From IMG/VR virus record IMGVR_UViG_2579778884_000014: a stretch of 41,415 bases of DNA; one strand, 5' to 3'. Every line of letters starts with the position of its first letter. Within the stretch, counting starts at the first letter, position 1. Positions 5,804-41,415 of the stretch are shown piece by piece. Source of the stretch: a virus. Taxonomy: Duplodnaviria; Heunggongvirae; Uroviricota; Caudoviricetes. The translations under genes and the position numbers were made by a program. The notes below the pieces were generated by a model that was given only the letters and a program-made list of their open reading frames with translations, searched no databases and was not told the origin of the DNA.

Positions 5804-5823
5804 AAACCCGCCGAAGCGGGTTT
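5804..5823 (-). terminator. Intrinsic terminator after the cargo cassette
   Basis: Perfect hairpin AAACCCGC-CGAA-GCGGGTTT; on the minus-strand transcript the stem is followed by UUUUUUGC. Lies between the cargo stop (5841) and the spike gene start (5781). Confidence 0.6.
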
Positions 5824-5840
5824 GATAACGTTAATTTTAT

Positions 5841-11995: not shown

Positions 11996-11998
11996 GCA

Positions 11999-24380: not shown

Positions 24381-24407
24381 AATAAAAAAGGCCCCCTTGC
24401 GGAAGCC
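24381..24407 (-). terminator. Intrinsic terminator (tR-prime-like) between the Q-proximal ORF and the lysis genes
   Basis: Minus-strand RNA folds GGCUUCC-GCAA-GGGGGCC (two G-U wobbles, GNRA loop) followed by UUUUUUAUU. Confidence 0.5.
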
Positions 24408-24474
24408 TCTTCGTGATGAACTGTTTTCAACGGATATCAGGCTAATCGGCTTTTTGGAATTCCACAACTATTTT

Positions 24475-24816: not shown

Positions 24817-24847
24817 CTGGTTCCCTTACGTGATTGATTGCTGGATA

Positions 24848-25270
24848 TTATGCCGCCGAGCAGCTCCTACGCAAAGTCCTGATAGCCTGAGGCTTTGACT
24901 GAACCGACTGATCCATTTCGAGCACCACATCCAGCATGGCTAAGCAACCGTCAATAAATCCCTCTGCCGCCTGAAGCCTCTTCAGAACGTGGGTGTGAGA
25001 TACGCCGAGCTTCTCACCCATCGCCCGCACGGGCATGGCCTGGACGTAATGCCACTCAAGGAGCGTGCACAGATACGGATCTTTTTTCTTCAGGCAGCTC
25101 ATAGCGGAGTTGATGATAAGACCGTCATTGTCACTGCATTTCAGCCTTCCAGACTGCGTCGCGGGTAGCAGATTCTTAAACCCGGCTGCAACAGGAGGAA
25201 AGTAGACACTACCACCTTCACTCGCTGCCCAGCCACCCCAGCGCTCTAAAACCTGTTGAATATTACGCAT
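24848..25270 (-). CDS. Late-gene antiterminator Q (phage 82/21-type)
   Basis: 140 aa; N-terminus MRNIQQVLERWGGWAA... matches the Q-family signature (MR.IQ.VLERWG.WAA) as recalled; lies upstream of the lysis cassette. Confidence 0.8.
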   Translation of the reverse strand: MRNIQQVLERWGGWAASEGGSVYFPPVAAGFKNLLPATQSGRLKCSDNDGLIINSAMSCLKKKDPYLCTLLEWHYVQAMPVRAMGEKLGVSHTHVLKRLQAAEGFIDGCLAMLDVVLEMDQSVQSKPQAIRTLRRSCSAA

Positions 25271-25323
25271 AGCTCTGACCTCTACGTTTTGCTACGAAAA
25301 AATTTTCTGAGAACCACGTTTGT

Positions 25324-25344
25324 TTATCCGTGGGTGTGGATAAC
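25324..25344. promoter_or_regulatory. DnaA-box-like palindrome
   Basis: TGTGGATAA at 25335..25343 is a perfect DnaA box on the opposite strand; with TTATCC at 25324..25329 it forms GTTATCC-n8-GGATAAC. Confidence 0.35.
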
Positions 25345-25400
25345 GCAGTTCCGATTCGCTTATTACACGCTGTTATGTGCAAAAAATTCCTTGTTCGGCC

Positions 25401-25580
25401 TGTACCAACCTGTACCCACCTGTACCAGCTCTTTTCAAACCTTTTCCCCAAGCGACTTATATATATATATGGGGTTCTTAGTAATTAGGTTGGTACAGAT
25501 GGTACAGTTGGTACTGGCCTTTAAATTCAATTAGTTAAAATGTACCAACCTCTATTTTGAGGTTGGTACAGGTTGGGACA
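25401..25580. repeat. Iteron array with AT-rich spacer (putative replication origin)
   Basis: Three direct TGTACC(A/C)ACC-type copies (25401..25430), a (TA)n tract (25459..25470), three inverted copies (25488..25518), a perfect palindrome TGTACCAACCTC-TATTTT-GAGGTTGGTACA (25541..25570) overlapping the primase stop codon, and a degenerate GGTTGGGACA copy. Confidence 0.6.
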
Positions 25581-27744
25581 CCGCCTCAAAAATTCGAGTC
25601 ATTTTCCCCCCAATTCGCCTTTGGGCACGCTTATACCCGCAATTTTGCAAAACATTACTAATTCGCATTTCTTCGCGTTTTCCGATGCGGTCAGGATTTA
25701 GCCCAATCGCATCACGCAAAACATCACTTGCGCGTAAAAATTCGCAATTTCGCGGAAGTTCATTAGTCATCAGGTCTGGCGTGTCGAGCCATTTCTCTAC
25801 CGTTTCAAGCCAAGCATCCTTGATGGTGTACTGTTCATGGACACTCGCTGCCAGTTGTTCAGCCTCACGGAACTGGATACCCCCCAGACGCTGAAACACC
25901 TCACGAGCCTCAGCCCAAAGTAAAAGGAGATCTCTTTTTATCGCTTTCACGTCGACTTTCGACACTTCCACGGGGAGCCAGCGACGGTTACCAGTCTTGT
26001 CCGCAAGGAATTCGTCCTCATTGGTGGTACCAACGAACACCAGGCGACGAGGAAACTGGGTGGCGAACTCCCGGTATTTCGGGATCCAGTTTTCGTGAGT
26101 ACGCGTCACAAACGCTTTGATTGACTCCAGCTCTTTGGTATTAAGTCCGCGCAGTTCACCAATCTCTGCCACCAGCCGACCACGCATTTTTCGAGCGAGA
26201 TCATCGTCTTTTTCGGCAAAAGAGATTTCAGTAAAAAACGCAGGATCAGGGCTCAGTGCCTCCACTCCGGAAGACTTACCGCAGCCCTGCGGACCAACGA
26301 GGATCGGCACCATATCCGCTTTGATGCCTGGCTCCAGTACTCGCCCCGCCAACGCGGTCCACATGTACATAGACACCGCACGGGTATAAGGCGTGTCGGC
26401 GGTACCGAAGTGCGTATGGTAGAAACATTCGATGCGCGGCACGCCATCCCACTCCAGTCCGTTCAGCCAAGTGATCGCTGAATCGAATGGTTGTTCATCG
26501 GCTGCAAGTAACACCACATCGCGAATAAGTTCACGACCAACAGGTTTAAATCCCCGCTTTTCCATCGTGATGCGCAGGCGCGCATAATCCGCATCGGTGA
26601 ATGCCCGCCATTGTCCGGATCCTGCAGGGGCAAACATGATTTCGTCGCGGAACTGGTCAAAGCGAATATCGATGTCCACAAAATCAGGGCGTACTACTGC
26701 TTTGGCTGCGTTGCTGATTGTTGCCTCGATACGCCCCCATTTATCACGCTCGAAAGCAGGCAGCGGTAAAGGTTCCGCCACTTCGGTGCTGGTCAGATCT
26801 TCGAAATCGTCGTTGCGGATCCCGATGGCATTAAGGAAATCTCCGTCATCACGATGCGCACAACTGGCATGCAGGCATTTAAAATGCCCCTGCTCAAAGC
26901 CCGCGGTTCCCGCAGGAAAATAAACTGTGCTTGTTGGATCGCCCCCGCTACTGTGGCCGTCTTCAAACGGACAGCGGATATATCGTTCACCATTTGCGCC
27001 ATCCAGCAGCGTCCAGCCATTGGCATCAAGATATTCAGCTGTATCATCCGTCGCGCCGGGCGTGAATGCTGATCGGTCGCGCATCTTCGTGTTGCCCGCT
27101 TCGGTGGTTACCGACACAGGGAGTTGTTCAGCCAGGCGCTGCCACAGCGTTTCAAGCTGCTCACCAGTAATAGCCGGAGGTTCATCCGGCAAACCGCCGT
27201 CCCATTCAATACGCGCGCCGCTGCTGTGCGTACCGCAGGCAACGAACTGCTGCCCGTTCGCCAGCAACTCGATAATGCCCATATCCCCCGCCAGGCGATG
27301 GATACGCTTACGGAAATCACCATCAACGGCCAGCAGATACAGACACTTATTACTGTTTGCTCGCCAGCGTCGCGGCGGCAACTCACCCAGAAGTTGCACA
27401 AGCGTTTTGCGAATATCTGCCTGAATGTCTTCATCTTCGCTATCACAGTCCAGCGCCAGCCAGCCATGGCCTGTACGCACGCAGATGCCATAATCCGGTT
27501 CATTCGACCAGCGGGCAAAATCATGCTCAGTAACAACATGCCCGGTCCATTGAGCAATACCGGTGACCTGGCGGTCCCGGTTATAGCGACTCGGCGTCTT
27601 ACCCAACGCTTTCAGTTTACTATCAGGGGATATGGTCGCACTGGGGTTACATACAACTGGGAGAAGATGATCAGTTCTCCCCAATACCAGGTCGAAATGA
27701 AACCACTCATCAGGCGTAGCTCCCCATGGTTTGCTATCGGACAT
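25552..27744 (-). CDS. DNA primase-helicase (Prim-Pol-like N-terminus, VirE/D5-like P-loop C-terminus)
   Basis: 730 aa; Walker A ...VGPQGCGKSS..., Walker B-like ...RLVFVGTTNE..., cysteine/histidine cluster (CPFEDGH...CLHASCAH) typical of primase zinc-binding regions. Confidence 0.8.
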   Translation of the reverse strand: MSDSKPWGATPDEWFHFDLVLGRTDHLLPVVCNPSATISPDSKLKALGKTPSRYNRDRQVTGIAQWTGHVVTEHDFARWSNEPDYGICVRTGHGWLALDCDSEDEDIQADIRKTLVQLLGELPPRRWRANSNKCLYLLAVDGDFRKRIHRLAGDMGIIELLANGQQFVACGTHSSGARIEWDGGLPDEPPAITGEQLETLWQRLAEQLPVSVTTEAGNTKMRDRSAFTPGATDDTAEYLDANGWTLLDGANGERYIRCPFEDGHSSGGDPTSTVYFPAGTAGFEQGHFKCLHASCAHRDDGDFLNAIGIRNDDFEDLTSTEVAEPLPLPAFERDKWGRIEATISNAAKAVVRPDFVDIDIRFDQFRDEIMFAPAGSGQWRAFTDADYARLRITMEKRGFKPVGRELIRDVVLLAADEQPFDSAITWLNGLEWDGVPRIECFYHTHFGTADTPYTRAVSMYMWTALAGRVLEPGIKADMVPILVGPQGCGKSSGVEALSPDPAFFTEISFAEKDDDLARKMRGRLVAEIGELRGLNTKELESIKAFVTRTHENWIPKYREFATQFPRRLVFVGTTNEDEFLADKTGNRRWLPVEVSKVDVKAIKRDLLLLWAEAREVFQRLGGIQFREAEQLAASVHEQYTIKDAWLETVEKWLDTPDLMTNELPRNCEFLRASDVLRDAIGLNPDRIGKREEMRISNVLQNCGYKRAQRRIGGKMTRIFEAVSQPVPTSK

Positions 27745-27747
27745 GGG

Positions 27748-27960
27748 TTAAGCCTTTTTATCGTTTTGTGAGCCATACAACAGCCAATTAGGGTCGCAAT
27801 CCAATGCTATAGACATTTCAAGAAGATAACGTGGCCGAGCAATAACACCACTTTCAATTCTGTTTATTGCCTGCTGGCTCACTCCTGTGAGCTCAGCCAA
27901 CGTAACTTGCGTCATTTTGAGTTCTTTACGTCGTTCTTTTACTCGGGTCGCTAAGGTCAT
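27748..27960 (-). CDS. Cro-like HTH regulator
   Basis: 70 aa from the ATG at 27960 (GAGGTG Shine-Dalgarno; track start at 27978 is a TTG). HTH ...MTQVTLAELTGVSQQAINRIESG...; divergent from the CI-like gene and heading the leftward operon. Confidence 0.7.
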   Translation of the reverse strand: MTLATRVKERRKELKMTQVTLAELTGVSQQAINRIESGVIARPRYLLEMSIALDCDPNWLLYGSQNDKKA

Positions 27961-28080
27961 TGCTTTCACCTCATACAATTTTAGTGGTATTTAGCAACAA
28001 CAAACGAGGTTTGTCAAATACAACAAAAATTGTTTTTAATGTGGGGATACACATTAATACAACCCAGAAGGACTAATCCC
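27961..28080. promoter_or_regulatory. Immunity switch region: divergent promoters and dyad operators
   Basis: Dyads ACAAAC-GAG-GTTTGT (28000..28014) and AACAA-AAA-TTGTT (28022..28034); back-to-back -35 hexamers (TTGACA on minus / TTGTCA on plus at 28011..28017); plus-strand -10-like TTTAAT at 28035..28040. Confidence 0.5.
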
Positions 28081-28704
28081 ATGTCTCTCGCAGCCCGTTT
28101 TAAAGCACGTCGTTTGGAATTAGGAATGACTCAAGTGGAAGTAGCGAATTCTGCAGGGGTTAGCCAACAATCCATAGAATCCATCGAAAGTGGACGAACC
28201 AGAAAGCCACGCAATCTTCTGGATCTGGCTAAGGCCTTGAAATGTAGCCCAGACTGGCTACTGAACGGTAAAAATATTATGCCTCTCGCGGAGATAAGTA
28301 CCAGACGCATACCTATATTAAGTTACGTTCAGGCAGGAGAGCTTACAGAAGCAAGAGACATAACAGATCTGACAGGGGAATTTGAATATATTTTGGCAGA
28401 CTCTGACATTCCAGAAACATGCTTCGCATTACGTATCGATGGCGACAGCATGCAACCAGAGTTTAAAGAAGGAGACATTGTTATCATCGATCCTGATCTA
28501 TGTCCTGCACCAGGGGAGTTTGTTGTCGCCAAAAACGACGGTCACGAAGCTACATTTAAAAAATACCGTCCATTAGGAATCGGCATCGACGACTTTGAAT
28601 TAATCCCCCTAAATCCTGATTACCCTATTTTTCGTAGTGCAGATATGAACTTACAGATCATAGGTGTAATGATCGAACACCGTATTTACCGCCGTAAACG
28701 TTAG
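28081..28704 (+). CDS. CI-like repressor (HTH plus S24 LexA-type autopeptidase)
   Basis: N-terminal HTH ...MTQVEVANSAGVSQQSIESIESG...; C-terminal ...IDGDSMQPEFKEGDIVIID... carries the Ser/Lys dyad context of S24 peptidases. Start at the ATG at 28081 (AAGGA Shine-Dalgarno); the track's upstream start is a TTG. Confidence 0.85.
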   Translation: MSLAARFKARRLELGMTQVEVANSAGVSQQSIESIESGRTRKPRNLLDLAKALKCSPDWLLNGKNIMPLAEISTRRIPILSYVQAGELTEARDITDLTGEFEYILADSDIPETCFALRIDGDSMQPEFKEGDIVIIDPDLCPAPGEFVVAKNDGHEATFKKYRPLGIGIDDFELIPLNPDYPIFRSADMNLQIIGVMIEHRIYRRKR

Positions 28705-28723
28705 TATTCCCACCGTAAATATC

Positions 28724-28743
28724 GGGAGGCGTAACAGCCTCCC
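28724..28743 (+). terminator. Hairpin downstream of the repressor gene (weak terminator candidate)
   Basis: GGGAGGC-GTAACA-GCCTCCC perfect 7 bp stem 20 nt after the repressor stop; poor U-tract. A second AU-rich hairpin CCACAAA-n8-TTTGTGG plus TTTAC follows at 28809..28833. Confidence 0.3.
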
Positions 28744-29026
28744 TTACCCCATTTGTAAAGTCTTACAAATTAAATTCACTTAAATATCAATAAAGTAGTA
28801 TTCACACCCCACAAAATACCACATTTGTGGTTTACATAATACAACTCAAATTGTATCTTTAGCCACAAGTCGAACGGCGCGACTCTAAACCATGCGTCGG
28901 GACCGTGGCGGGACAGGATGTCGGCAATACGGGTCAGTAAGTTCCCTTTGGGGTGCGGCGAAGCACTGTCTACTGATACAAGTCGAAGCCGCCGAACCAC
29001 CAAAGTGAACTGAATGAGGAAACGGC

Positions 29027-29221
29027 GTGAAAACGTATAAACCGCTCAAAGGTGAATGCCCTGCTTGCCAAACACAGCTTCTGACACCAAAGCCAAAACG
29101 ATACCAAATCAACGAATGTTATGAGCACTGCCCTGGATGTGGTGCTTTCCTGCATACCATTGCAACGCACTGGCGTGTCCGCTTCAACCTTGTGGTACCA
29201 CGTACGCACAATACCAACTGA
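29027..29221 (+). CDS. Small zinc-ribbon protein (two CxxC pairs)
   Basis: 64 aa from a GTG start with GAGGAA Shine-Dalgarno; CPAC...CPGC spacing suggests a zinc ribbon; followed by its own terminator. Confidence 0.5.
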   Translation: MKTYKPLKGECPACQTQLLTPKPKRYQINECYEHCPGCGAFLHTIATHWRVRFNLVVPRTHNTN

Positions 29222-29250
29222 ATCATCCATGTAATTGCTGTGTGTAGTCT

Positions 29251-29280
29251 TTGCCCGCCTCACGTGACGGGCTTTTTTAT
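29251..29280 (+). terminator. Intrinsic terminator
   Basis: GCCCG...CGGGC stem with an internal CACGTG palindrome, followed by TTTTTTAT. Confidence 0.65.
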
Positions 29281-29337
29281 GTCTGAAAGCGCACTCGCAA
29301 CAGCGTGCTCCCCGATATGAAAAAAGGAATACAACCG

Positions 29338-29487
29338 ATGAAACCTGAACACATCCATCGACTGACGGGGCGCGATGTTCTCCGTTATCGCCGTAAAAAC
29401 TTCGATTTGATGACCGGTCTGGCCGTTGCCACTGCGCTCGGTCTGATCATCACTTTCATTCTCCTTGTAGCGAGGACCACAGTATGA
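29338..29487 (+). CDS. Small single-pass membrane protein
   Basis: 49 aa from the ATG with an AAGGAA Shine-Dalgarno (track ORF starts earlier at a GTG); hydrophobic C-terminal segment LAVATALGLIITFILLV; first gene of the plus-strand operon. Confidence 0.4.
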   Translation: MKPEHIHRLTGRDVLRYRRKNFDLMTGLAVATALGLIITFILLVARTTV

Positions 29488-30386
29488 GTTTAGAAACCAG
29501 TCTAGAACTTAATAATCAACTTCTGGCACAACATAATGCGCTGCTTGAACGTCTTATCCGCACAATGGCATCAGGCATTGTTATGCATCCTGACACGATT
29601 TCACGAGTGCAGGAATGTCGGGATACAGCAACTGAAACTGAAAATATGTCAGCGGCAATGACACTGGATGATCTGGAGTTCAGCGACGTTATCGCACTGG
29701 CTGGTTTCTACCCGGTAGCCACCCCTATCACAGAAGACATGCTGCAACGTGCTGTTGCCTACCGTGATGCTGAAGGCGATAAACGAGTTGTTCAGATTGA
29801 TGCTCTCGACAGCGCATTGCAGGGCGTCAAACGAGCCAGGGCGCTGCTTAAACCTGCTCTCCTGGACCTGTCCCGTAACATCCTTAAGTTCTGGGACGAC
29901 CTGCCAACCATCGGCGAGCGACGTGCTTTTGCCGAGCAGCTACTTGATGCACCTGCAGATGGGCGTGATGAAGTTAAGCCGAAAAAGGCCAGTAACAAAG
30001 ATGGAGAACGCACGGGGCCGTTTTACGTCAAAAATGTATCCGGCACAGCAGCCAGTGAACTCCATACCTTACGCAAGTTGAACGAGATGCTTAAAAAAGG
30101 CCATATCGAGATCAACCGTGTTGAGTACCTTCAGCTGCAGGAAGAATTTGCACGCAGAGACGCAGCAAATTCCAGCCAGAATAATGACGCCAAAGATGAC
30201 CATACAATTGATTTCGCGGCACTACGCAAACAAGCTGAAGGGTTGATCCTCCAGTTAGCAAAAGGGGGTTACCGGGCAGAAGCTATTGCAATTCTGGAAA
30301 AACAGGGAGCCAGGAAACTTGGTGAAGTAACGGATGAAAATCTCGCTGAAGTAATCACCCTGGCTGAAAAAGCACTGGAGGGTTAA
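29484..30386 (+). CDS. Hypothetical protein
   Basis: 300 aa ORF translationally coupled (ATGA overlap) to the preceding small gene; no motif recognised. Confidence 0.6.
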
Positions 30387-30388
30387 TC

Positions 30389-31690
30389 ATGCCAGACGTT
30401 CATGCACAACTTTCTCCATCATCAGCGCATCGATGGATGCGCTGCCCAGGAAGTCTGGCGCTGGAGGCCACACAACCGGATAAAGAAACAACTTTTGCAA
30501 TCGAGGGCACTGCAGCGCATGCACTTGCCGAAAAGGTGCTGCGCAACCGCCAGAGCCACCCGGAGCACTATGCAGGTTGCAACGTCGCGATGTTCCTTGG
30601 ATCCTATCCTCTTGCTGAGCACCCGGATGATACTTCCGGCCCGCAGGTAGATGAGGAAATGGTCGAAGCCGTTGGTCGTTACGTCGACACTGTTTGGGCG
30701 CTGGCGCAGGGCAATGAGCTGCTGGTCGAGCAGCGTGTCGACTTCTCCCATATAACGGGTGTGGAAGAATCTTTCGGAACTGCCGACAGCATAATCATTG
30801 CTGGTAGCGAATTACAAATCCACGACCTGAAATATGGCAAAGGCGTCCGCATTGATGCAGAACAAAATGAGCAACTACAACTGTATGCTCTGGGTGCGCT
30901 CGAACAATTCAGCATGCTGTATGACTTTGAGACTGTAAGATTATTTATTCACCAGCCGCGGCTTAACCACGTTTCAGAGTGGGCTCTGACGGTGGAAGAG
31001 CTCCAGGCGTTCGGTGAACGGGCACAGGAGGCCGCAACCAGTGCGATCCTTGTTCTCAATATTGCTGAATGCGAAGGCATTGAGACACTACCGCTGGAAA
31101 ACTTCATACCTGGAGAAAAACAGTGCCGCTTCTGTAAAGCAAAAGCTATTTGCACTGCCCAGAAAATGCAGCATTTACAAACAGCGGCCAGCGACTTTGA
31201 AGATCTGACAAAGCCTGTCAGCGAAATAATCACCAATGCCAGCGCACGTGTACCTCTGTTAACCATTGAGCAGCTTGCGGAGATCTATAGCCAGACCGAC
31301 TTTATTGAGTCCTGGCTAAAGGCAGTACGGGACCGGGTTCACAATGAACTCAATGCCGGACATCCGGTACCGGGGTTTAAACTGGTAACAGGAAAACAAG
31401 GTAACCGGGCCTGGAGTGATGAAGAGGCAGCTCGCGCACTTCTGAAGGACCAGTTCAGGTACAAAACTGAAGAAGTATTCGACTTTAAACTTATTAGTCC
31501 CACAAAAGCCGAAAAACTTATCAAAAAGGCCAGTCCGCGCCGTTGGTCAAAAGTCGAGGCACTGATAACACGAGCTGATGGTAAACCCACCGTCGTTCCC
31601 GAGTCAGACCCACGCCCCGCACTCAATATCAACCCTGTAAATGATTTCGACGACGTATCCGACGATACGCTAACCGCAGACCTCATCTGA
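30389..31690 (+). CDS. PD-(D/E)XK nuclease, Cas4/RecB-like (DUF2800-type)
   Basis: 433 aa; N-terminal ...[14 protein letters not shown]... and C-terminal cysteine cluster ...[10 protein letters not shown]... as in Cas4-like Fe-S nucleases; precedes an SSB-like gene and a family A polymerase. Confidence 0.7.
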
Positions 31691-31705
31691 TTTAAGGAAA
31701 TCCCC

Positions 31706-32254
31706 ATGAAACTGAAGCTGAACAATGTTCGTCTGGCCTTCCCGTCTCTGTTTGAAGCTAAAACTGTAAACGGCGAAGGCGATCCGCGTTTCTCCGCAGT
31801 ATTTTTAATGTCTCCCAAACACCCACAACTGGAAGAAATCCGTAAAGCTATGAAGCAGGTAGCGAAGGAAAAATGGGGGGAGAAGTGGGAGTCCATTTAT
31901 AACCAGCTGGAGAAAAAACTCAATCTGTGCCTGCATGATGGTGATGAAAAAGCAGAGTATGAAGGCTTTCCCGGCAATTTCTTCCTGAACGCTGCTAACA
32001 AAGCGCGCCCAGCTGTTCTTGATCGCGATCGTTCGCCACTAATTCAGGCTGATGGACGTCCCTATGCAGGGTGCTATGTAAACGCCGTTATCGATATCTG
32101 GGCACAGGACAATAATTTCGGTAAACGCATTAATGCCTCACTCGGCGGAGTCCAGTTCCTGCGAGACGGCGATGCATTCGCTGGCGGCGGAGTGGCAAGC
32201 GCTGACGATTTCGACGATATCAGCGAAGGTGCTGATGCTGAAGCACTAATTTAA
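31706..32254 (+). CDS. ssDNA-binding protein-like (DUF2815-type)
   Basis: 182 aa with an acidic C-terminal tail ...DDFDDISEGADAEALI typical of SSB partner-interaction tails. Confidence 0.6.
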   Translation: MKLKLNNVRLAFPSLFEAKTVNGEGDPRFSAVFLMSPKHPQLEEIRKAMKQVAKEKWGEKWESIYNQLEKKLNLCLHDGDEKAEYEGFPGNFFLNAANKARPAVLDRDRSPLIQADGRPYAGCYVNAVIDIWAQDNNFGKRINASLGGVQFLRDGDAFAGGGVASADDFDDISEGADAEALI

Positions 32255-32290
32255 AAATATTCATCCCCCAGCTGCGTGCTGGGGGATCTC

Positions 32291-32944
32291 ATGAGGGAAA
32301 GAATAATGTCACAGCCCGTATTAACTAATTACCTTAAAACTCAAATCATCAATAACGCACTTGAGAAAGCGGGTATCCCCAAACGTAAATCAGCACTACG
32401 AGCTGCTCGTGTTGAATGGGCCGAACGTGTTCGGCTTGCAGCTATCGGGGGCGTAGAGAAAGAAGCTGAAATATTAAAAAATATAAAAAAAATAGAAACA
32501 CTGGTATCAAAATTCCCCGAAGCATTAAAAACCGCCAATAACATTATCAGGGAAGAGTGTTACATGTGTCTGAATCTGGCAGGTTCTCGGGTTACCGTCT
32601 ATTTCAACGGTAACTACCGAGGATATGAATCAGGGTCACCAGACCATATTCACAAAATCGCGCCGGGGGAATTTACCCTTCTGGCAAATGACCCTCTAGT
32701 TACAGAGTTTTACGGGTTTGATACACTTTATGAGCAGATACAGAGCGATGAGTCAGACATTCGACAGAATGTCAGCGCTGCACTCAGTAAAGTGCGCACA
32801 GTTAAGCGCCTGCTGGAAGAGTGGCCTGAAGCTAAAGAACTTCTGCCAGCCGATGCACCATCTGCTCCGCTTCCGCCAGCTATACGACGCGAAACTCTCA
32901 ACGAAATGATCGGCCTCCCTTCTGACGAAGGGGTAGATGCTTAA
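32291..32944 (+). CDS. Hypothetical protein
   Basis: Track ORF starts at a GTG at 32276 inside a GC-rich hairpin; the ATG at 32291 (GGGGGA Shine-Dalgarno) or 32306 is more plausible. Confidence 0.5.
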   Translation: MRERIMSQPVLTNYLKTQIINNALEKAGIPKRKSALRAARVEWAERVRLAAIGGVEKEAEILKNIKKIETLVSKFPEALKTANNIIREECYMCLNLAGSRVTVYFNGNYRGYESGSPDHIHKIAPGEFTLLANDPLVTEFYGFDTLYEQIQSDESDIRQNVSAALSKVRTVKRLLEEWPEAKELLPADAPSAPLPPAIRRETLNEMIGLPSDEGVDA

Positions 32945-33011
32945 TATTTCTTATAACAAAGGCTGGCTTAAGAAAATAGTTATCCAAACCAGCCTACCGC
33001 AATACTAAAAA

Positions 33012-33281
33012 TTAAAATTCATTGAATTTAAAAAGACATTTCCCTATTGGATTGCCATAGTCTCTACATACCGAAATGCTGTCCCATACAGGCTGAGCCA
33101 AACACCCAAGAAAGAACCCAATAAGCGCAAAAATTATAATTTTGGGAAGAACACGATCCTTAGGACCTTCTTCACGTTCGAGCCATGCGCCACCAGCCCG
33201 AACTATTCTCCCTAAAATATAAAGAATGGGGAAAGCAATAATACCTATCAATGAAAGTATTCCGATACCAAAGCTAAACAC
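33012..33281 (-). CDS. Small two-helix membrane protein, antisense insertion
   Basis: 89 aa from a GTG start with a strong AAGGAGA Shine-Dalgarno; two hydrophobic helices; AT-rich island on the strand opposite the surrounding operon. Confidence 0.65.
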   Translation of the reverse strand: MFSFGIGILSLIGIIAFPILYILGRIVRAGGAWLEREEGPKDRVLPKIIIFALIGFFLGCLAQPVWDSISVCRDYGNPIGKCLFKFNEF

Positions 33282-33337
33282 CGCCGTCTCCTTGTTTATT
33301 TACACCTACATAACCATATATCACACAAGGTTATTTT

Positions 33338-35401
33338 ATGTCCAATATACTATGGGGTGACCTAGAAACCTATTGCGAAATCCCTATTACGAACGGTACC
33401 CATGCGTATGCCGAAGGCGTTGAAGTGATGCTGTTCGCATGGGCTATCAACGACGAGCCCGTAAACGTGTGGGATATCACTGCCGGTGGTGGTATTCCAC
33501 ACGGCTTATACGAAGCAATCGCAGCCCCTGAAACCCTGCTTTATTTTCATAACTCTCACTTCGACCGCACCGTCCTGCGTTATGCAATGCCGCGCCTGGC
33601 ACCGCCAGTCGAACGTTGGCGCGACACAATGGTGCAGGCGCTGGCGCACGGTCTCCCGGGGTCTCTGGGGGAACTCTGCGAAGTACTAGGCGTCCCGCAA
33701 GACAAAGCGAAGGACAAAGAAGGTAAAGCGCTGATCCAGCTGTTCTGTAAGCCACGCCCGAAAAACAGCAAACTGCGCCGGGCCACCAGCAAAACCCACC
33801 CGGAAGAATGGCGGCGCTTTGTTGCTTACGCCGGACTGGATATCGAGGCAATGCGCGAAGTCTATAAACGTCTGCCGAAGTGGAATTATCAGGGGACAGA
33901 ACTGGCGCTCTGGCATCGTGATCAGCAGATCAACGACCGGGGCGTCTGCATGGACATTCAACTCGCGCGCGCTGCGATCGAAGCGGTAGACCAGGAGCAA
34001 AAGCGCCTGGCAAAGCGTACACAGGAAATGACTGATGGCGAAGTGCAGGCAGCAACACAACGGGACGCGTTGATTAAGCACATCGTTGAATCCTACGGTG
34101 TGGAGCTACCAGACATGCAACGCAGTACTCTGGAACGTCGTATAGCCGACCCCGATTTACCATCTGCCGTGAAAGAACTGCTGGCTATCCGCCTGCAGGC
34201 CAGTACTACCAGCACCAGTAAATACAAGGCACTGATGAAAGGCGTAAGCCACGACGGGCGCTTACGCGGTACGCTACAGTTCTGCGGGGCGTCACGTACC
34301 GGTCGTTGGGCCGGACGGCTATTCCAGCCCCAGAACCTTCCCCGCCCTTCACTAAAACAGGAACAAATAGACGAAGGCATCGAAGCACTGAAAGCCGGAT
34401 GTGCAGACCTGCTGTTTGACAATATCATGGAACTAACCAGTTCAGCGTTACGTGGCTGCATTATCGCGCCAACAGGCAAAAAACTGGTGGTAAGTGACTT
34501 GTCGAACATTGAAGGCCGTATGCTGGCATGGCTGGCGGGAGAAGAATGGAAACTGAATGCATTCAGAGAGTACGACGCCGGAACGGGTCCGGACTTATAT
34601 AAACTGGCGTATGCAAAAGCTTTCGATATTGCACCAGATGATGTTGATAAACACATGCGTCAGATCGGTAAAGTCATGGAACTCGGTCTGGGTTATGGAG
34701 GTGGTGTATCGGCTTTCATCACTTTTGCTCTGGTTTACGGTCTCGATCTCGACGAGCTGGCGAACGCCGCACTGCCAAACATTCCCCGCGATGTTATCCG
34801 CGAGGCGAAAAGCTGGTACAACGAATCGGTTAAACGTAAGTCGACCTTTGGCCTGTCCGAGCGTGTATTCATCGCATGTGACTCGCTCAAGCGCCTGTGG
34901 CGCAGGGCGCACCCGGCGACCTGCGATTTCTGGTACGAACTGGAGCGCACCGTCCGCACTGCAATCGCCACACCGCAAAAAACATTGTATTGCGGTTATC
35001 TTAAAATCCGCCGCGATGGCGCGTGGCTGCGCATACAGCTACCATCCGGACGCGCTGTATGCTACCCCTCTCCGGTTATCGAAAAAGGGAATATCACCTA
35101 TATGGGTGTTAACTCTTATTCGCGTAAATGGCAACGACTCAAAACCTACGGCGGAAAGCTGGTAGAGAACGTCACCCAGGCGGCCGCCCGCGACGTTCTG
35201 GCCGGAAACATGCCGCTTATCGAAGATGCCGGTTACAGCATTGTGCTGACGGTACACGACGAGGTGATCACCGAAGCACCTGACACAGAAGATTTCAACG
35301 ATAAAGCGCTTTCCGCGCTTCTCTCCACTAACCCCGAATGGGCGCCCGATATCCCACTGAACGCTGGCGGTTTTGAGGCGTACCACTACCGTAAGGATTA
35401 A
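33338..35401 (+). CDS. DNA polymerase, family A, with 3-prime-5-prime exonuclease domain
   Basis: 687 aa; exo motif ...GDLETY..., polymerase motif A-like ...[18 protein letters not shown]..., motif B-like ...[16 protein letters not shown]..., motif C ...[12 protein letters not shown]... Confidence 0.85.
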
Positions 35402-35406
35402 TCGCT

Positions 35407-35610
35407 ATGACTGTAATCAAAACGCATACCGGAACGGTTATTACCCGCACCGGTGAAAAGCAGGTGCAATTGCATCAAAACGCGACAACGTGGGTGGCTG
35501 GCCCAAAAGAGTATTACTACAAAGACACTGGCCGCCGCGGTGGTGCTGTCGGTGTCCGCACTCGTCTGGTGCTGAGCAGCATCCGCCCAATCGAAGCAAA
35601 GCAGGAGTAA
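35407..35610 (+). CDS. Hypothetical small protein
   Basis: 67 aa ORF directly after the polymerase gene. Confidence 0.4.
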   Translation: MTVIKTHTGTVITRTGEKQVQLHQNATTWVAGPKEYYYKDTGRRGGAVGVRTRLVLSSIRPIEAKQE

Positions 35611-35615
35611 CCCCT

Positions 35616-35837
35616 ATGTCATTTAAATATCGGGACAGTCCGCTTTATTACCGGGCTGCGAGGGAGGCCTTGCGCCTTGAGCAGTCCGGCGAATATGACC
35701 GGGCAGCGAAGGTCTGGGCCAAGGCTAACCGCCAGTCACGTAACGAACTGAATCAGGACTGGAGCGAACGCCGGTCTGATTTTTGTCTGATGCAGAACAT
35801 GCGCGAAAAGCGTAAGGCGGTGAGCGATGACTTGTGA
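35616..35837 (+). CDS. Hypothetical small protein
   Basis: 73 aa from the ATG at 35616 with an AGGAG Shine-Dalgarno 8 nt upstream; the track ORF extends upstream without support. Confidence 0.45.
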   Translation: MSFKYRDSPLYYRAAREALRLEQSGEYDRAAKVWAKANRQSRNELNQDWSERRSDFCLMQNMREKRKAVSDDL

Positions 35838-36309
35838 GCAGACCATTCTTGACATGTGCTGCGGCTCTCGTATGTTTTGGTTCGACAAGGAGGACAAGCG
35901 CGCCGTGTTCAGTGATATCCGCGCCGAGCAGCATGAGCTTTGCGACGGTCGCCAGTTGGTTATAAGTCCGGACCTTATAGCTGATTTCCGCGCCCTTCCC
36001 TTTGCCGATAACACTTTCCCTGTCGTCGTTTTCGATCCGCCGCACCTCGAGCGCGTCGGCGATAACGCATGGATGAGGAAAAAGTACGGGCGGCTCAACA
36101 AAGAAACATGGCGCGATGATCTTCGCGACGGCTTCGCCGAAGCATTCAGGGTATTGCGGCCCCACGGTGTACTCATATTCAAATGGAACGAAACGCAGAT
36201 CCCGGTAAGCAATATCTTGGCGCTGACCGACGAGAAGCCGGCCATATGGCAACGAACCGGAAAAGCCGACAAAACCCACTGGGTTATTTTCGTCAAAGGT
36301 GTGGAATGA
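35827..36309 (+). CDS. Small DNA methyltransferase (phage Dam-like, DPPH motif)
   Basis: 160 aa; SAM-binding motif I-like ...ILDMCCGSRMFW... and catalytic motif IV ...VVVFDPPH... Confidence 0.65.
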   Translation: MTCEQTILDMCCGSRMFWFDKEDKRAVFSDIRAEQHELCDGRQLVISPDLIADFRALPFADNTFPVVVFDPPHLERVGDNAWMRKKYGRLNKETWRDDLRDGFAEAFRVLRPHGVLIFKWNETQIPVSNILALTDEKPAIWQRTGKADKTHWVIFVKGVE

Positions 36310-36602
36310 TGGCCTACGAACGTGAAAGCCTTATCGAAAAGCACCTCGTCGCCGAAGTGAAAAAGGCTGGCGGGGTCGCCTTTAAGTTCGTGTCACCCGG
36401 TCGCCGCTCGGTACCGGATCGCATTGTCCTGCTACCCGGCGGTCGCATCGTCTTTGTCGAATGCAAAGCGCCAAGCAAACCACCACGGCCTGACCAGTTA
36501 CGCGAGCACGAACGGCTGCGCGCGTTGGGCTTTACCGTGGTGGTATTAGATAGCAAAAATCTGGAGGGGATATTGTGCGGGGAGCCTATTACAACGAAAT
36601 AG
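36306..36602 (+). CDS. VRR-NUC domain nuclease
   Basis: 98 aa from an ATGATG start overlapping the upstream stop; ...VSPGRRSVPDRIVLLPGGRIVFVECKAPSKPPRPDQLREHERL... fits the VRR-NUC core. Confidence 0.7.
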   Translation: MMAYERESLIEKHLVAEVKKAGGVAFKFVSPGRRSVPDRIVLLPGGRIVFVECKAPSKPPRPDQLREHERLRALGFTVVVLDSKNLEGILCGEPITTK

Positions 36603-37603
36603 ACCCTAACGCAGCACAATGGCTGCGTAACCTTATTGCTGCAGGTCATATCGCCCCGGGTGAAGTTGATGAAAGGAGTATCGAAGATGTCGCACCAGAC
36701 GACTTGCGCGGATTCACACAGTGCCATTTCTTCGCCGGGATCGGCGTCTGGTCTTATGCTCTGCGTCTGGCCGGATGGCCGGATAACAAACCGGTCTGGA
36801 CAGGAAGTTGCCCGTGCCAGCCTTTCAGCTCGGCTGGTAAAGGCGCTGGGTTTGATGACGAGCGGCACCTATGGCCAGCACTATTCCACCTCATCAGCGA
36901 GCGACGCCCTAAGCTGGTATTTGGCGAACAGGTTGCGGGAGTCAATGCCTGGTTCGATCTTGTACAAACTGACGTGGAAGCAGTGGACTACGCCTTTGGG
37001 CTTGTCCCGTTTCCGGCTGCGGGCGTCGGTGCCCCGCATATCCGAGATAGAGCGTATTGGGTGGCCGACGCCAGCGGCGAGCGATCACAGCGGTGGCGAA
37101 AGCGCCTCAATAGCATTGAGGAAGATGTCTGGAGATCGTCGACCGTCCGGCAACACGCTACACAGCTCCCTGCGGAATTTTGCTCACCTAGCGGGGTGGT
37201 ACACCCCAACCTGCAACACAAACCCACAGCCGGAGACAAAACGCGGTCTAGAAACCTTAGCGGGACTATCCAGATTAGCGGGATGGCCGACAGTGACGAC
37301 GATCGACAACAACCAAGTTCGTGCCGAGGGCGCAGCGGCCAATCATACCGAACGGGGAACGACCCTCGGCGGCGCTGCGAGAATCTGCGGCCCAATACGA
37401 TTAACGGCTGCTGGGATGGTGCTGACTGGCTCCTCTGCCGGGATGGTCGCTGGCGGCCAGTTGAATCCGGCACATGCCCGTTGGCTAATGGGATTACCTC
37501 CAGAGTGGGACGACTGCGCGCCTACGGCAACGCGATAGTCGCACCAGCTGCCGCAACATTCATCCGCTCGTTTATGGAATGCGCAGGATACGACCTTATT
37601 TAA
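36575..37603 (+). CDS. DNA (cytosine-5)-methyltransferase, reading frame uncertain in the middle
   Basis: GTG start with GGAGGGG Shine-Dalgarno; motif I ...FFAGIG..., motif IV ...PCQPFS..., motif VI-like ...GEQV..., motif VIII-like ...HIRDRAYWV..., motif X ...YGNAIVAP.... The overlapping ORF 36636..37538 also looks coding. Confidence 0.7.
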
Positions 37604-37920
37604 TGCCACTCACATCTGGCATGATACCGTCCAGAAGGTAATTGCTTATATACAACGGAGCCGCCCATGGCATAAGTATAAGCATGAAGTTTTGTCCAGA
37701 AGTCCCCATAAACTAGTATTGGGGCTAAAAATTTTGGATCGCTAACCATAGATGTAGCAGGAAGCTCGAAACCTTTAGAAAGAATGTTTACCAGTGAAGG
37801 GTAATTTTCAAAATCAGTGCTATTCCCGCCCACCTCTAAAGCATCCAGTTCAAAGTCGAGCACTCCACCATTTTTGTAATACTCCGGAACAGTTAACCCT
37901 GATGTTAACAAAGTAGCCAT
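37600..37920 (-). CDS. Hypothetical protein, antisense insertion
   Basis: 106 aa with a perfect AGGAGG Shine-Dalgarno 8 nt upstream of the ATG; AT-rich island; convergent with the C5-methyltransferase, 4 nt 3-prime overlap. Confidence 0.6.
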   Translation of the reverse strand: MATLLTSGLTVPEYYKNGGVLDFELDALEVGGNSTDFENYPSLVNILSKGFELPATSMVSDPKFLAPILVYGDFWTKLHAYTYAMGGSVVYKQLPSGRYHARCEWH

Positions 37921-37954
37921 TAAACAATCCTCCTGAATTTTAAAGGGTTACATT

Positions 37955-39349
37955 ATGCCCAAAGTTTTCACGCCTCGCCCCTACCAAGATCTAATTATCA
38001 ACCACGAAATCGACATTCACCGCTGCAACATCTGGGCAGGGATGGGGATGGGTAAAACCGTAGCGACACTCACCACGCTGGAAGATCTTTTCATGGCGGG
38101 CTCAGAGACACAGCCCGCGCTGGTCCTCGCGCCCCTACGCGTTGCAGCAAGCACATGGCCGGATGAAGCGCTGAAATGGGGGCATCTGCGCAATATCGAG
38201 GTGCAGCCGATTGTTGGTAACGCCAAAGCACGCTCTGCAGCGCTGGCGAACAGCAACGCGAGCGTGTTCACCATCAACTACGATAACCTTGTCTGGCTGG
38301 TTGAGGAATTGGGAGAACGATGGCCGTTCGGTACTGTCATTCCAGATGAAAGCACCCGGCTAAAATCCTTCCGGCTGCGAGGTGGTGGTAAGCGCGCGGC
38401 GGCGCTGGGCAAAGTGGCGCATAAGTATGTCCAGCGCTGGATAAATCTCACCGGTACGCCAGCACCGAACGGCCTGGTAGATTTGTGGGGACAATTGTGG
38501 TTTGTGGACCAGGGGCAACGTCTCGGGCGCACTTACGGCGCGTTTACCTCACGCTGGTTCAACTCGATACAGTTTCCGGGGCAGAGCTGGACCAAACTGG
38601 AGCCGTTTGCTCACTCACATGCTGAAATACAGCGAGCGTTAGCCGATGTGACCCTCTCGCTGGATGCGGCCGACTGGTTCGATATCAAAGACCCCATCCA
38701 TAACGTAATCCGCGTGGATATGCCGCCGAAGGCCCGTCAGCAGTATCGTGAAATGGAAAAGGAAATGTTCCTCGAGCTGAACGGCGAAGGCATCGAAGCA
38801 CCAAACGCCGCGGCAAAGACACTGAAGTGTCTGCAAATCGCCAGTGGCGCAGTATACACAGACGACACCGGAAGTTGGTCAGAACTGCATGACACCAAAC
38901 TACAAGCGCTGGACAGCATACTGACCGAAGCAGCTGGCGCACCTGTGCTGGTTGCTTATCACTGGAAACACGATCTTGAACGCTTGCTTAAAGCATTCCC
39001 TCGCGGTCGTCACCTCGACCAAGATCCACAGACACTGCGCGACTGGAATTCCGGAAAGATTCCTGTTCTCTTTGCACACCCAGCCAGCGCGGGCCACGGT
39101 CTGAACATGCAGGACGGCGGAAACATACTGGTATTTTTCTCACACTGGTGGGACCTGGAGCAGTATCAGCAAATTATTGAACGTATCGGCCCCACCAGGC
39201 AGATACAGGCCGGACACAATCGTCCGGTATTTATTCACCACATTATTGCGGCCGACACTATGGACGAAATGGTGATGGAGCGGCGCAACTCAAAACGAAC
39301 AGTGCAGGACATCCTGCTCGATGCCATGAAAAAGAGAGGTATAGCATGA
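37955..39349 (+). CDS. SNF2-family helicase
   Basis: 464 aa; Walker A ...GMGMGKT..., DExx-type ...VIPDESTR..., motif III ...LTGTP..., C-terminal helicase motifs ...HGLNMQDGG... and ...ERIGP... Confidence 0.85.
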   Translation: MPKVFTPRPYQDLIINHEIDIHRCNIWAGMGMGKTVATLTTLEDLFMAGSETQPALVLAPLRVAASTWPDEALKWGHLRNIEVQPIVGNAKARSAALANSNASVFTINYDNLVWLVEELGERWPFGTVIPDESTRLKSFRLRGGGKRAAALGKVAHKYVQRWINLTGTPAPNGLVDLWGQLWFVDQGQRLGRTYGAFTSRWFNSIQFPGQSWTKLEPFAHSHAEIQRALADVTLSLDAADWFDIKDPIHNVIRVDMPPKARQQYREMEKEMFLELNGEGIEAPNAAAKTLKCLQIASGAVYTDDTGSWSELHDTKLQALDSILTEAAGAPVLVAYHWKHDLERLLKAFPRGRHLDQDPQTLRDWNSGKIPVLFAHPASAGHGLNMQDGGNILVFFSHWWDLEQYQQIIERIGPTRQIQAGHNRPVFIHHIIAADTMDEMVMERRNSKRTVQDILLDAMKKRGIA

Positions 39350-39546
39350 GCGAGAAACCCGACGATTTACTCACCCCAGATGAAGTATGCCAAAAGTTAG
39401 GTATTACACAGAAAACGCTATGTGAGTGGAATATTAAGCATCGTCATCGGGCTATCCTGGCACCAATTCGTTTCAGTGCAAAAGTAGTTCGTTATGAGCG
39501 CCGAAATGTCGACGCTTTTATTCAAAAGTGTCGCAGCCAGTATTAA
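39346..39546 (+). CDS. Excisionase / AlpA-like HTH protein
   Basis: 66 aa; ...LLTPDEVCQKLGITQKTLCEW... fits AlpA/Xis-type HTH; next to and convergent with the integrase. Confidence 0.55.
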   Translation: MSEKPDDLLTPDEVCQKLGITQKTLCEWNIKHRHRAILAPIRFSAKVVRYERRNVDAFIQKCRSQY

Positions 39547-40940
39547 CCTCGCCGCCGTAGCAATGCAACCTGCGCAAGTATGCTCCGCTCGTGAGCCTCG
39601 AAAGCTTCGCGCTTTAACGCAATCTCTTCCTGTAAAATCTCATCAGAAAAGTCGTAATGTTCTGCCATCGGGTCATCTGACTTGCTGGAGTGGTGAAGGC
39701 AAAGGAGGCTGATTTCCCTTCGGTCTGATCGGGAATAGCCTCTTTCCTTCATCAAGGCAATAACATTGCTCTTAAGGAATTTACGGCACATCGTATTAAA
39801 TGCACCGTCTTTCCCTTTAACAGTCCCATCATGTTTTATTCCTTTTACAGCCCCGTCCGGGCTGTATGTTTTCACCAGCTTATCCAGTGATCGTTTTGAA
39901 AATGGCTGCATTGGATCACGTGGCTGCAAAAATACATAATCCCTGTTGCACTCAGGAACTGAATCACGCCAGGCTTTCTGCTCGTCGATAATCCGCCGGA
40001 TCTCAGGCGTTATCGGCAGGCGGAAAGCCTTTTGTGTTTTCATAGCCCCTCGCATGCCGATAACCCCTTCCGGATAAACAATTTCACCAGCCTCCTCGTG
40101 AACGTAGTCCCAGCGCAGGTTATGGACATTAATCGGACGAACGCCAGTGATGATCATGAAGCGAACAGCATTCTTCTGGTGTACAGAGGTGCAGGCAGCA
40201 ACATTGAGCCAGAGTCGGGCGATTGATTCAATATCGGTAAAAAGCCGTGTGGGGGTAGGTTTCTGTATGCGGGAGGAAACATAATCATCTGGCAGACTGG
40301 CGGCAACATTGCGGCCGTTGCAAAGAGTAGGTGCGCAGAACTTCCAGAACCGACGGAGCTCGGCAAACAACTCCAGGGCGTTATTGTTCGAGCGAGTGGC
40401 GATCCACTCGTCCAGCACTTCCACCAGCCGATTGTATGTTACGTCGCTGAACACCTCACGCTCGCCGAACGTTGCTTTAATCCGGTCGATACGCACCCCG
40501 TAGGTTGTGAAACTGTCCGGGCTCAGCTTCTGCCGGGCGACTTTGGCTTTGAGGTCATCCCGGTACATTTCCAGCGCTGCATGTACTGACTCTGCCCGCA
40601 AGCCACAGTCAGCCATACCTAGCGCTTTTTCGCGCGCCAGCTGGATAGCGAGCTCCGGCCACTCGCCGAGCTTTTTACCCTTGAGGCCCATCTTTTTTGG
40701 AAACTCGGCGTAAAATGTAACCTTACCGGCTTTGCTGAAATCGATACGGAGATAGTTCTCTTTTTCGTATTTGGAACGGCGAGCCACGCCGGAAGCAGCG
40801 AGGATGATTTTGGCAGCAGCAACACAGATTTTCATGTGTGCGCTGGTATAGGGGGGTTTACAGGCGTCCCATTTTTCAGATGCGGCTAAAACATCGTCAT
40901 TATTGGGGCTATCCGGATTATGTGTTACAGTGCGCGGCAT
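39543..40940 (-). CDS. int: Tyrosine integrase
   Basis: About 465 aa; C-terminal catalytic region includes ...TGVRPINV..., ...LLCLHHS... and ...EHYDFSD.... Start at the ATG at 40940 (AAGGA Shine-Dalgarno; track start at 40946 is a TTG). Terminal position beside a host gene. Confidence 0.85.
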   Translation of the reverse strand: MPRTVTHNPDSPNNDDVLAASEKWDACKPPYTSAHMKICVAAAKIILAASGVARRSKYEKENYLRIDFSKAGKVTFYAEFPKKMGLKGKKLGEWPELAIQLAREKALGMADCGLRAESVHAALEMYRDDLKAKVARQKLSPDSFTTYGVRIDRIKATFGEREVFSDVTYNRLVEVLDEWIATRSNNNALELFAELRRFWKFCAPTLCNGRNVAASLPDDYVSSRIQKPTPTRLFTDIESIARLWLNVAACTSVHQKNAVRFMIITGVRPINVHNLRWDYVHEEAGEIVYPEGVIGMRGAMKTQKAFRLPITPEIRRIIDEQKAWRDSVPECNRDYVFLQPRDPMQPFSKRSLDKLVKTYSPDGAVKGIKHDGTVKGKDGAFNTMCRKFLKSNVIALMKERGYSRSDRREISLLCLHHSSKSDDPMAEHYDFSDEILQEEIALKREAFEAHERSILAQVALLRRRG

Positions 40941-41145
40941 TCTCAATCCTTATCTGCGTAGGCGCAGAAAACAAGCTCACACATACAAGTCTTTTCTACG
41001 GGACAAAATGCAATGTGTTGCGGTTTTGTGTTGCTGGACTGAGTTTATCAAGGTTAAATGCACTGGATCAACATACAGTAAGTTAATGACAGTAAAACAT
41101 ACAAACTCGATACAACTTACTGATTTTAAAATGATTTAACGGTAA

Positions 41146-41415
<270 letters not shown>

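Follow-up and report, generated by a model that had tools for sequence, protein, structure and literature searches.

A temperate Escherichia coli prophage in yfhL that very probably carries a BPP-1/APSE/YeP4-type early super-module

What stands in for the O/P-type replication genes and Red/RecET-type recombination genes of a phage that is otherwise under CI, Cro and Q control? The question is raised by a prophage of Escherichia coli contained in a 41,415-nucleotide stretch of DNA (IMG/VR virus record IMGVR_UViG_2579778884_000014, Caudoviricetes), which in its full length we refer to as the window. A first-pass annotation, made from the letters alone, had proposed that a non-lambdoid replication module at 29484-39349 is embedded here in a λ-like regulatory framework. 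Here, we identify the region as, very probably, part of the early super-module—immunity, replication, recombination and integration—of a temperate E. coli myovirus prophage residing in yfhL. It is of the type found in the phages BPP-1, APSE and YeP4, is built on a duf2800–gp2.5–polA cassette, and is joined to Q, a λ-type lysis cassette and a late module resembling that of Salmonella phage SEN34.

The genome is mosaic, as first proposed, but the polymerase module is not a one-off insertion in a λ-like framework: it is a conserved and described super-module shared by BPP-1, APSE, YeP4, BcepC6B and Xfas53. Modules of the duf2800–gp2.5–polA type without an ssb gene are common in phages of both Gram-positive and Gram-negative hosts (PMC8093625), and the early modules of the APSE phages are syntenic with those of BPP-1, BcepC6B, Xfas53 and YeP4 while being combined with unrelated P22-like late genes (PMC8579659). 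Publications already cover this kind of module, its synteny and its mosaic combination with various virion modules, the configuration is common in enterobacterial prophages, and RefSeq/PGAP names for the early-region genes are already present at the locus in uropathogenic E. coli (UPEC) chromosomes. The locus carries little weight as a discovery, being a known module with named genes; the by-products of its analysis are a predicted origin with its iterons, a comparison with SEN34 and a list of cargo and unknown genes.

The early module and its relatives

The boundaries of the open reading frames (ORFs) coincide with those of the first-pass annotation, and domains were called by Pfam, PHROG, NCBIfam, PADLOC and PDB profile searches. 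Profile annotation of this kind had been suggested at the outset and contradicted none of the original domain calls; the activities named below are predictions from such matches and from motifs.

Five core genes lie on the plus strand. The first (30389..31690) encodes a DUF2800 protein, a putative Cas4-like PD-(D/E)XK exonuclease (DUF2800, PF10926, 1e-109; PDDEXK_1, 9e-11), in which the hallmarks of Cas4 are present: a PD-(D/E)XK active site (D133...D146-x-K148) and a four-cysteine cluster formed by Cys19 at the N-terminal side and C246xxC249x5C255 at the C-terminal side. No cas genes or CRISPR arrays are annotated or seen in the prophage, and 'Cas4-like' is a fold label for this protein and nothing more. 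Directly downstream, 31706..32254 encodes a 182-amino-acid DUF2815/Enc34-type, T7 Gp2.5-like protein predicted to bind and anneal single-stranded DNA (Enc34_ssDNA-bd, PF10991, 2e-44; PHROG 112). It matches the solved chains 5odj and 5odk of the single-stranded DNA-binding protein (SSB) of Enterobacter phage Enc34 (5odj/5odk/5odl; PF10991) at 4e-16 and over its full length, at a low identity that indicates family membership only; Enc34 itself, unlike the window phage, is a virulent siphovirus. Downstream of this pair and sharing its operon is a family A DNA polymerase (PolA) with a 3′–5′ exonuclease domain (33338..35401; DNA_pol_A, PF00476, 5e-14; PHROG 17, 2.5e-125) and a complete set of Exo I, II and III and A, B and C motifs. 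The remaining two genes encode a VRR-NUC protein, a putative branch or Holliday-junction nuclease (36309..36602; PHROG 93 endonuclease, 4e-31; D...ExK motif) that shares 53-75% identity with its counterparts in BPP-1, APSE-1 and YeP4, and an SNF2-family helicase/translocase (37955..39349; SNF2-rel_dom, 6e-13; PHROG 62, 1e-158) with Walker A and DEST motifs. All ORFs of the module are full length and their catalytic motifs are intact, and the five assignments agree with those of the first-pass annotation. An identity of the polymerase as DpoZ, the Z-genome enzyme, was rejected (18.7 bits for NF038380, whose cut-off is 500), as was hypermodified DNA, the prophage annotation containing no hypermodification enzymes.

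Bacteriophage T7 encodes a family A polymerase (gp5), an SSB (gp2.5), a primase-helicase (gp4), an exonuclease (gp6) and endonuclease I (gp3). The window recalls this set in its proofreading family A polymerase, Gp2.5-type SSB, primase-helicase, predicted 5′ exonuclease and junction nuclease, and in having no host-type ssb gene: the PGAP annotation of the whole prophage, in which not every small ORF was scanned, contains no canonical one. It differs from T7 in that its primase-helicase combines an AEP Prim-Pol with a VapE-like domain rather than TOPRIM with DnaB, its exonuclease is Cas4-like rather than FEN-like and its nuclease is of the VRR-NUC type, and in having an additional SNF2 protein and a temperate, repressor-controlled lifestyle. 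The DUF2800 protein and its Gp2.5-like partner probably constitute a recombination system, a functional analogue of Exo/Beta.

The order of these genes links the region to known phages. The early regions of BPP-1, APSE-1 and YeP4 have primase and cro in one operon and, in the divergent one, cI, a variable leader, DUF2800, the Gp2.5-like SSB, PolA, VRR-NUC, SNF2 and xis/int. In tblastn comparisons the five core proteins are 46-75% identical to those of the three phages and keep their order, and the non-core genes of the window module are absent, barring the primase-helicase of YeP4 and domains of a 300-amino-acid protein discussed below. The polymerase is 74% identical to that of Yersinia phage YeP4, 68% to BPP-1 Bbp42 and 60% to APSE-1 P45; its close relatives also occur in other temperate phages (APSE-1 to APSE-8, at 60-64%, Burkholderia phage BcepC6B and Xylella phage Xfas53), and with more distant relatives included, this polymerase type is matched in 1651 phage records.

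In Bordetella phage BPP-1 (Rauchvirus), the genes bbp29-bbp50 are alike in order and orientation, with excisionase and integrase distal, and the identities are 46% for DUF2800, 66% for the SSB, 68% for PolA, 53% for the VRR-NUC-type endonuclease and 66% for SNF2. BPP-1 differs in being a podovirus with a diversity-generating retroelement, in having its integrase co-oriented with the operon, and in its primase, which reaches 27% identity to that of the window over only a quarter of the length; the stretch of BPP-1 compared contains no Q/λ-type lysis cassette. APSE-1, a phage of the aphid symbiont Hamiltonella, and YeP4 have core genes that are 55-75% identical in the same order, and YeP4 additionally shares the primase-helicase, 74% identical over its full length, and an equivalently placed candidate iteron origin. 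Both are podoviruses with other cargo and with no Nmad5 or methyltransferase genes, and the APSE polymerase, unlike that of the window, has an HNH/intein-like insertion.

One element with a SEN34-like late region

The prophage lies in the E. coli chromosome between yfhH and yfhL (RefSeq annotation), and positions 27000-41415 of the window are 100% identical to the UPEC chromosomes BH100, F11 and Ecol_542. An 18-bp attachment (att) core, AATTGTGATATGTGTGAA, occurs once to the left of pin, where it adjoins the leftover original 5′ fragment of yfhL, and once at 41185..41202, as the attR core within the yfhL 5′ end. The right end of the prophage provides the gene with another 5′ end: comparison of the yfhL junctions (41155-41202 in the window and 2643-2690 in the reference stretch compared) shows that it encodes a substitute N terminus. 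As core copies stand at both ends, one of them in yfhL, the integration site of the phage is therefore the 5′ end of this gene. A single element of about 42.5 kb with one att pair, not two elements, is present. Its sole tyrosine integrase (39543-40940, minus strand; PGAP/profile annotation) forms a block at 39346..40940 that starts with an Xis/AlpA-like helix-turn-helix (HTH) protein (39346-39546, plus strand), and apart from it the element encodes a single recombinase, a Pin-type serine invertase beside an inverted-repeat-flanked segment.

The polymerase gene of the early region is carried by 159 of 5426 complete E. coli genomes (about 3%). Relatives whose core genes are 96% identical are deposited in GenBank as phage genomes (vB_EcoM-606R2, -611R5 and -689R2), the records of 606R2 and 611R5 being about 42.7 kb long and each comprising early and late halves; the literature searched yielded no paper on the 606R2 group.

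The late genes resemble those of a different phage. Salmonella phage SEN34 (Brunovirus) matches 62% of window positions 1-25000 at 81% nucleotide identity, and resembles the window in its head, tail and baseplate region and in its overall lambdoid organisation, which includes Q, a holin and an endolysin and places xis/int distally in the left operon. Its early genes comprise int, AlpA, exonuclease, RecT, Gam, Kil, repressors, CII, O, P, NinB, NinG and Q, and none of its proteins matches any early protein of the window. Between cro and Q, SEN34 has O-like, P and nin genes, whereas the window has the primase-helicase and a candidate origin; between the repressor and int it has exo, RecT and Gam, whereas the window has the polymerase operon. 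SEN34 shares the late genes and holds O/P and exo/RecT/Gam at the equivalent positions, and the module swap is therefore directly shown. The replacement of O/P-type replication and Red/RecET-type recombination genes claimed in the first-pass annotation is illustrated by this comparison, such genes being absent from the prophage annotation and present at the equivalent positions of SEN34. The two phages form a clean natural pair in which whole modules have been exchanged at λ-equivalent positions, and the literature searched apparently does not discuss this early module paired with a SEN34-like myovirus late module.

The Q-family late antiterminator (24848..25270, minus strand; Phage_antitermQ, PF06530, 5e-42; PGAP) ends the PR-like operon and lies upstream of a holin–endolysin–spanin cassette, in which the holin matches S at 2e-27 and the endolysin matches λ lysozyme (1am7) at 2e-95, in agreement with the λ R endolysin first proposed. 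The tail had been described as contractile, Mu-like and with invertible fibres. Only the invertible fibre segment resembles those of Mu, P1 and e14; the tail module, with DUF3383, KPP10_Orf10 and baseplate J proteins, is SEN34/Brunovirus-like and not demonstrably Mu-like. The inverted repeats AAACGTTGGTTTGGGAGA (617-634) and TCTCCCAAACCAAGGTTT (2451-2468), which we take to resemble Gin/Pin/Cin crossover sites, flank a segment of about 1.85 kb with alternative tail-fibre tip and assembly genes beside pin. A coordinate offset relative to strain BH100N points to a 48-bp insertion or deletion within 24146-24475, between the holin gene and a 113-amino-acid ORF.

Candidate origin, early control and alternative readings

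The opposite early operon encodes, as first proposed, a primase-helicase in which an AEP-type Prim-Pol is fused to a VapE/D5-like (VirE-type in the first-pass annotation) helicase (25552..27744, minus strand; VapE-like_dom, 2e-60; PHROG 256/1156), a putative initiator that matches PDB entry 7pds at 8e-34. Prim-Pol (PF09250) was missed in a Pfam scan of the whole 730-amino-acid protein and was found when the N-terminal 422 amino acids were scanned alone (4e-10, above the gathering score). The motifs LDCD and GTH correspond to the AEP DxD and histidine motifs, and GPQGCGKS to Walker A.

Directly 3′ of this gene and overlapping its last codons, positions 25397..25581 contain a cluster of 10-bp iterons, TGTACCMACC/GGTTGGTACA, with at least nine copies whose direct and inverted arrays flank AT-rich tracts (TATATATATATA at 25460-25473 and TTTAAATTCAATTAGTTAAAA at 25520-25540). 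Six of the eight iteron matches in the window fall inside 180 bp here, and a long-range search for repeats in 24000-41415 returned only chance-level pairs apart from this cluster, which is probably the replication origin. In λ (O/ori), P4 (alpha/ori) and the SaPIs (rep/ori), the origins are arranged similarly. YeP4 has iterons of its own, GGTTGTCTAG, in an equivalent position and layout (1146-1335 of the stretch compared), as does 606R2, with AGGTGACGG (1138-1401 of the stretch compared). In 606R2 the N-terminal 323 amino acids of the primase-helicase, corresponding to the Prim-Pol, are 62% identical to the window protein and the C-terminal half is unrelated, the change being confined to that half. 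Compared at the sequence level, the iterons of the three phages differ from one to the next along with the primase-helicase; iterons and enzyme change together, which is therefore good comparative evidence for an origin that the primase-helicase would recognise. Three origin/primase-helicase variants, each with its own iterons, make a candidate origin and specificity determinant directly testable in a common group of enterobacterial prophages.

The regulatory genes between the two operons likewise bear out the proposed CI/Cro/Q control. A Cro-like HTH regulator (27748..27960, minus strand; HTH_3, 2e-14) is separated by a divergent control region (27961..28080), with operator-like ATACAA-N6-TTGTAT sites at 27973-27990 and 28018-28035, from a CI-type repressor of the LexA family with HTH and S24 autopeptidase domains (28081..28704, plus strand; Peptidase_S24, 2e-21; HTH_3, 1e-12; PGAP). 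Beyond cI, a PL-like promoter (TTTACA-17-TATCTT; 28831..28859, plus strand) is overlapped by a perfect operator-like palindrome (28839-28856). This is the sole perfect ATACAA-N6-TTGTAT copy in the window, for a pattern defined post hoc, and lies some 130 bp past the end of cI, on the far side of a hairpin. In 606R2 and YeP4, which have different repressors, cI is followed in an analogous layout by a terminator and a strong promoter carrying repeats that are also found between cro and cI; this recurrence lends support to a possible λ-style OR/PR plus OL/PL design. Farther along, a terminator-like element consisting of a GC hairpin and T6 (29253..29278, plus strand), conserved in 606R2, lies upstream of the replication operon. 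An unannotated 64-amino-acid zinc-ribbon ORF with a good ribosome-binding site (29027-29221) is located at the N-equivalent position just upstream of this hairpin; profile searches assigned it to no family.

We propose the following sequence of events. SOS-triggered self-cleavage of the S24-type CI would fire the two divergent early operons, of which the PR-like one would yield Cro, the Prim-Pol/VapE primase-helicase and Q. The primase-helicase would recognise the iterons 3′ of its own gene, open the AT-rich tracts and prime synthesis, and the PL-like operon would supply a self-contained T7-like enzyme set in which the proofreading PolA extends the primers and the Gp2.5-like protein coats and anneals single strands. 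The Cas4-like protein may act as a 5′ exonuclease that resects ends and, with the SSB, support Exo/Beta-like recombination and recombination-dependent replication; VRR-NUC might then cut or resolve branches before packaging, and the SNF2 translocase, as a guess, remodel forks or branches. Xis and Int, encoded at the distal end as in λ, would complete the set.

Several observations weigh against this interpretation. Window-wide, the operator pattern was found three times against 1.5 expected, which is not above chance, and its statistical weight is limited by its having been derived from the sequences in which it was counted. The terminator-like hairpin separates the replication operon from the PL-like promoter, and of the ORFs that follow cI up to the operon none matched an N-like antiterminator family; the proposed transcription scheme is therefore incomplete. 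The VRR-NUC protein scores 16.8 bits in Pfam, under the gathering score of 23.8, and the roles given to SNF2, the 300-amino-acid protein and Nmad5 are guesses.

Three other explanations bear on how the module is read as a whole. Satellites such as P4 and the SaPIs typically encode a Prim-Pol/VapE primase-helicase beside an iteron origin, and the late genes have in SEN34 a relative with a wholly different early region, so two adjacent elements with their own integrases, for instance a primase-carrying satellite or phage-inducible chromosomal island (PICI)-like element beside a lambdoid prophage, come into question; the first-pass annotation had itself named a composite of this kind as the outcome that would overturn it. 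One tyrosine integrase was found, with one att pair that bounds the element, the other recombinase being the Pin invertase. Moreover, the arrangement of primase, cro–cI, polymerase operon and xis–int recurs in the complete genomes of BPP-1, APSE-1 and YeP4, and both halves are held by the phage records of 606R2 and 611R5, which makes two elements extremely unlikely. We also regard decay to a remnant in a cryptic, non-functional prophage as unlikely: E. coli prophages are often defective and the neighbouring chromosomal gene mltF is a pseudogene in the reference strain, but the reading frames and catalytic motifs are intact, the late, lysis, regulatory and integration gene sets are complete, many strains have near-identical copies, and relatives have been deposited as phage genomes.

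A block devoted mainly to defence, anti-defence or DNA modification would account for an SNF2 protein such as those of DISARM, Dpd and Zorya standing together with nucleases, methyltransferases and Nmad5. Weak PADLOC matches link SNF2 to DpdE, ZorD and DrmD and the methyltransferases to MTase_II and DruM, the name of Nmad5 refers to an association with nucleotide modification and a mutation in this protein confers escape from Tmn defence (PMC11846954), and relatives have SIR2 or TIR-like genes in the slots between the core genes. The SNF2 matches, however, span the generic helicase core only (E 1e-12 to 1e-6), DUF2800, DUF2815 and PolA have no or marginal PADLOC matches, the polymerase is not DpoZ, and no hypermodification enzymes are annotated. 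The five core genes keep their order while the candidate defence and modification genes vary, and the core occurs in virulent phages as well, always with polymerase and primase. A defence island fits the cargo of the slots and not the module, for which we consider it very unlikely.

Variable slots and accessory genes

The early super-module of the BPP-1/APSE/YeP4 type is interrupted at three slots whose contents vary among relatives (32255-33337, 35402-36308 and 36603-37954), and here the first-pass annotation had left out two DNA methyltransferase genes, that of an ANR regulator and a number of small ORFs. Between the SSB and PolA genes, the window has an Nmad5-family gene (32306..32944, plus strand, with an alternative start at 32276; PF18757, 4e-56) and an 89-amino-acid hydrophobic ORF (33012..33281, minus strand) that profile searches assigned to no family; strain 21KM1392 has a SIR2-family gene there instead (5381-6862 of the stretch compared). 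The slot between PolA and VRR-NUC contains a 67-amino-acid ORF (within 35407..36309, plus strand; PHROG 1226), an ANR-family small regulator (35616-35837, plus strand; NF033650, 2e-20) with weak similarity to PerC, and a 160-amino-acid DNA methyltransferase (35827-36309, plus strand); in 606R2 a TIR-like gene follows PolA (11628-12389 of the stretch compared). Between VRR-NUC and SNF2 (36575..37920) lie a C5 DNA cytosine methyltransferase (36575-37603, plus strand) and a 106-amino-acid ORF (37600-37920, minus strand), and 606R2 and YeP4 have other genes in this place. Nothing in the module except the methyltransferases and the generic helicase core is recognised by PADLOC.

Variation in the region that precedes the polymerase gene has been one basis for naming APSE types (PMC8579659). 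Because of this variable region, the SIR2 and TIR-like genes in the slots of relatives and the link between Nmad5 and escape from Tmn, we tentatively consider that the three slots might be a hotspot for defence and counter-defence cargo, in which Nmad5 and the 89-, 67- and 106-amino-acid proteins could be conflict players and the 300-amino-acid protein perhaps a Gam-like nuclease inhibitor, a reading that we hold to be possible but doubtful. The slots and the 300-amino-acid and Nmad5 proteins are in any case defined targets for functional screens.

Two proteins of 300 and 217 amino acids had been singled out as uncharacterised. For the former, the first large gene of the operon (29484..30386, plus strand), that description stands: it matches only PHROG 6784, a family of unknown function, and nothing in Pfam, NCBIfam or PADLOC. 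The family is small: close relatives in prophages of Enterobacteriaceae number 588, and among 1.8 billion cluster representatives a profile search returned only 78 relatives, none with a Pfam domain. The protein shares only its central helical and C-terminal three-helix domains with APSE-1 P53 and a 244-amino-acid protein of YeP4, and its AlphaFold2 model (predicted local distance difference test (pLDDT) score, 62.7) is confident only for these two domains; Foldseek against the PDB gave a best E of 0.3, and a profile search against PDB sequences gave no match. Bbp36, encoded at the same position in BPP-1, has no sequence similarity to it. The bbp36 gene (4361-5290 of the stretch compared) is annotated as containing 'variable region 2 (VR2)'.

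The '217 aa hypothetical' is the Nmad5-family protein. Its AlphaFold2 model (pLDDT 85) has no fold neighbour, and tblastn found the gene absent from 606R2, BPP-1, APSE-1 and YeP4. Homologues at 30-68% identity lie in the early-left regions of Stx1- and Stx2-converting phages, HK542 and Salmonella phage SPN3UB. These phages replicate with O/P-type genes, and the family is therefore not bound either to PolA modules or to the known hypermodification cassettes; a role as a polymerase accessory factor was rejected, homologues being present in O/P-type lambdoid phages (Stx phages and SPN3UB). In the M6/SN1 thymidine hypermodification cassette, Nmad5 is accompanied by a pyrimidine hydroxymethylase, aGPT-Pplase, a kinase, and radical SAM and PLP enzymes, upstream of the polymerase (PMC9476957); none of these partner enzymes is annotated in the prophage. 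The sole experimental link in the literature searched is to Tmn: a point mutation in Nmad5 lets Dhillonvirus phages escape this defence, whereas deletion of the gene does not (PMC11846954).

No matches were returned when the window was scanned for Rfam families and tRNAs. The ANR family, whose name stands for AraC negative regulators and implies antagonism of AraC-type activators, is here represented inside the replication operon of a UPEC prophage.

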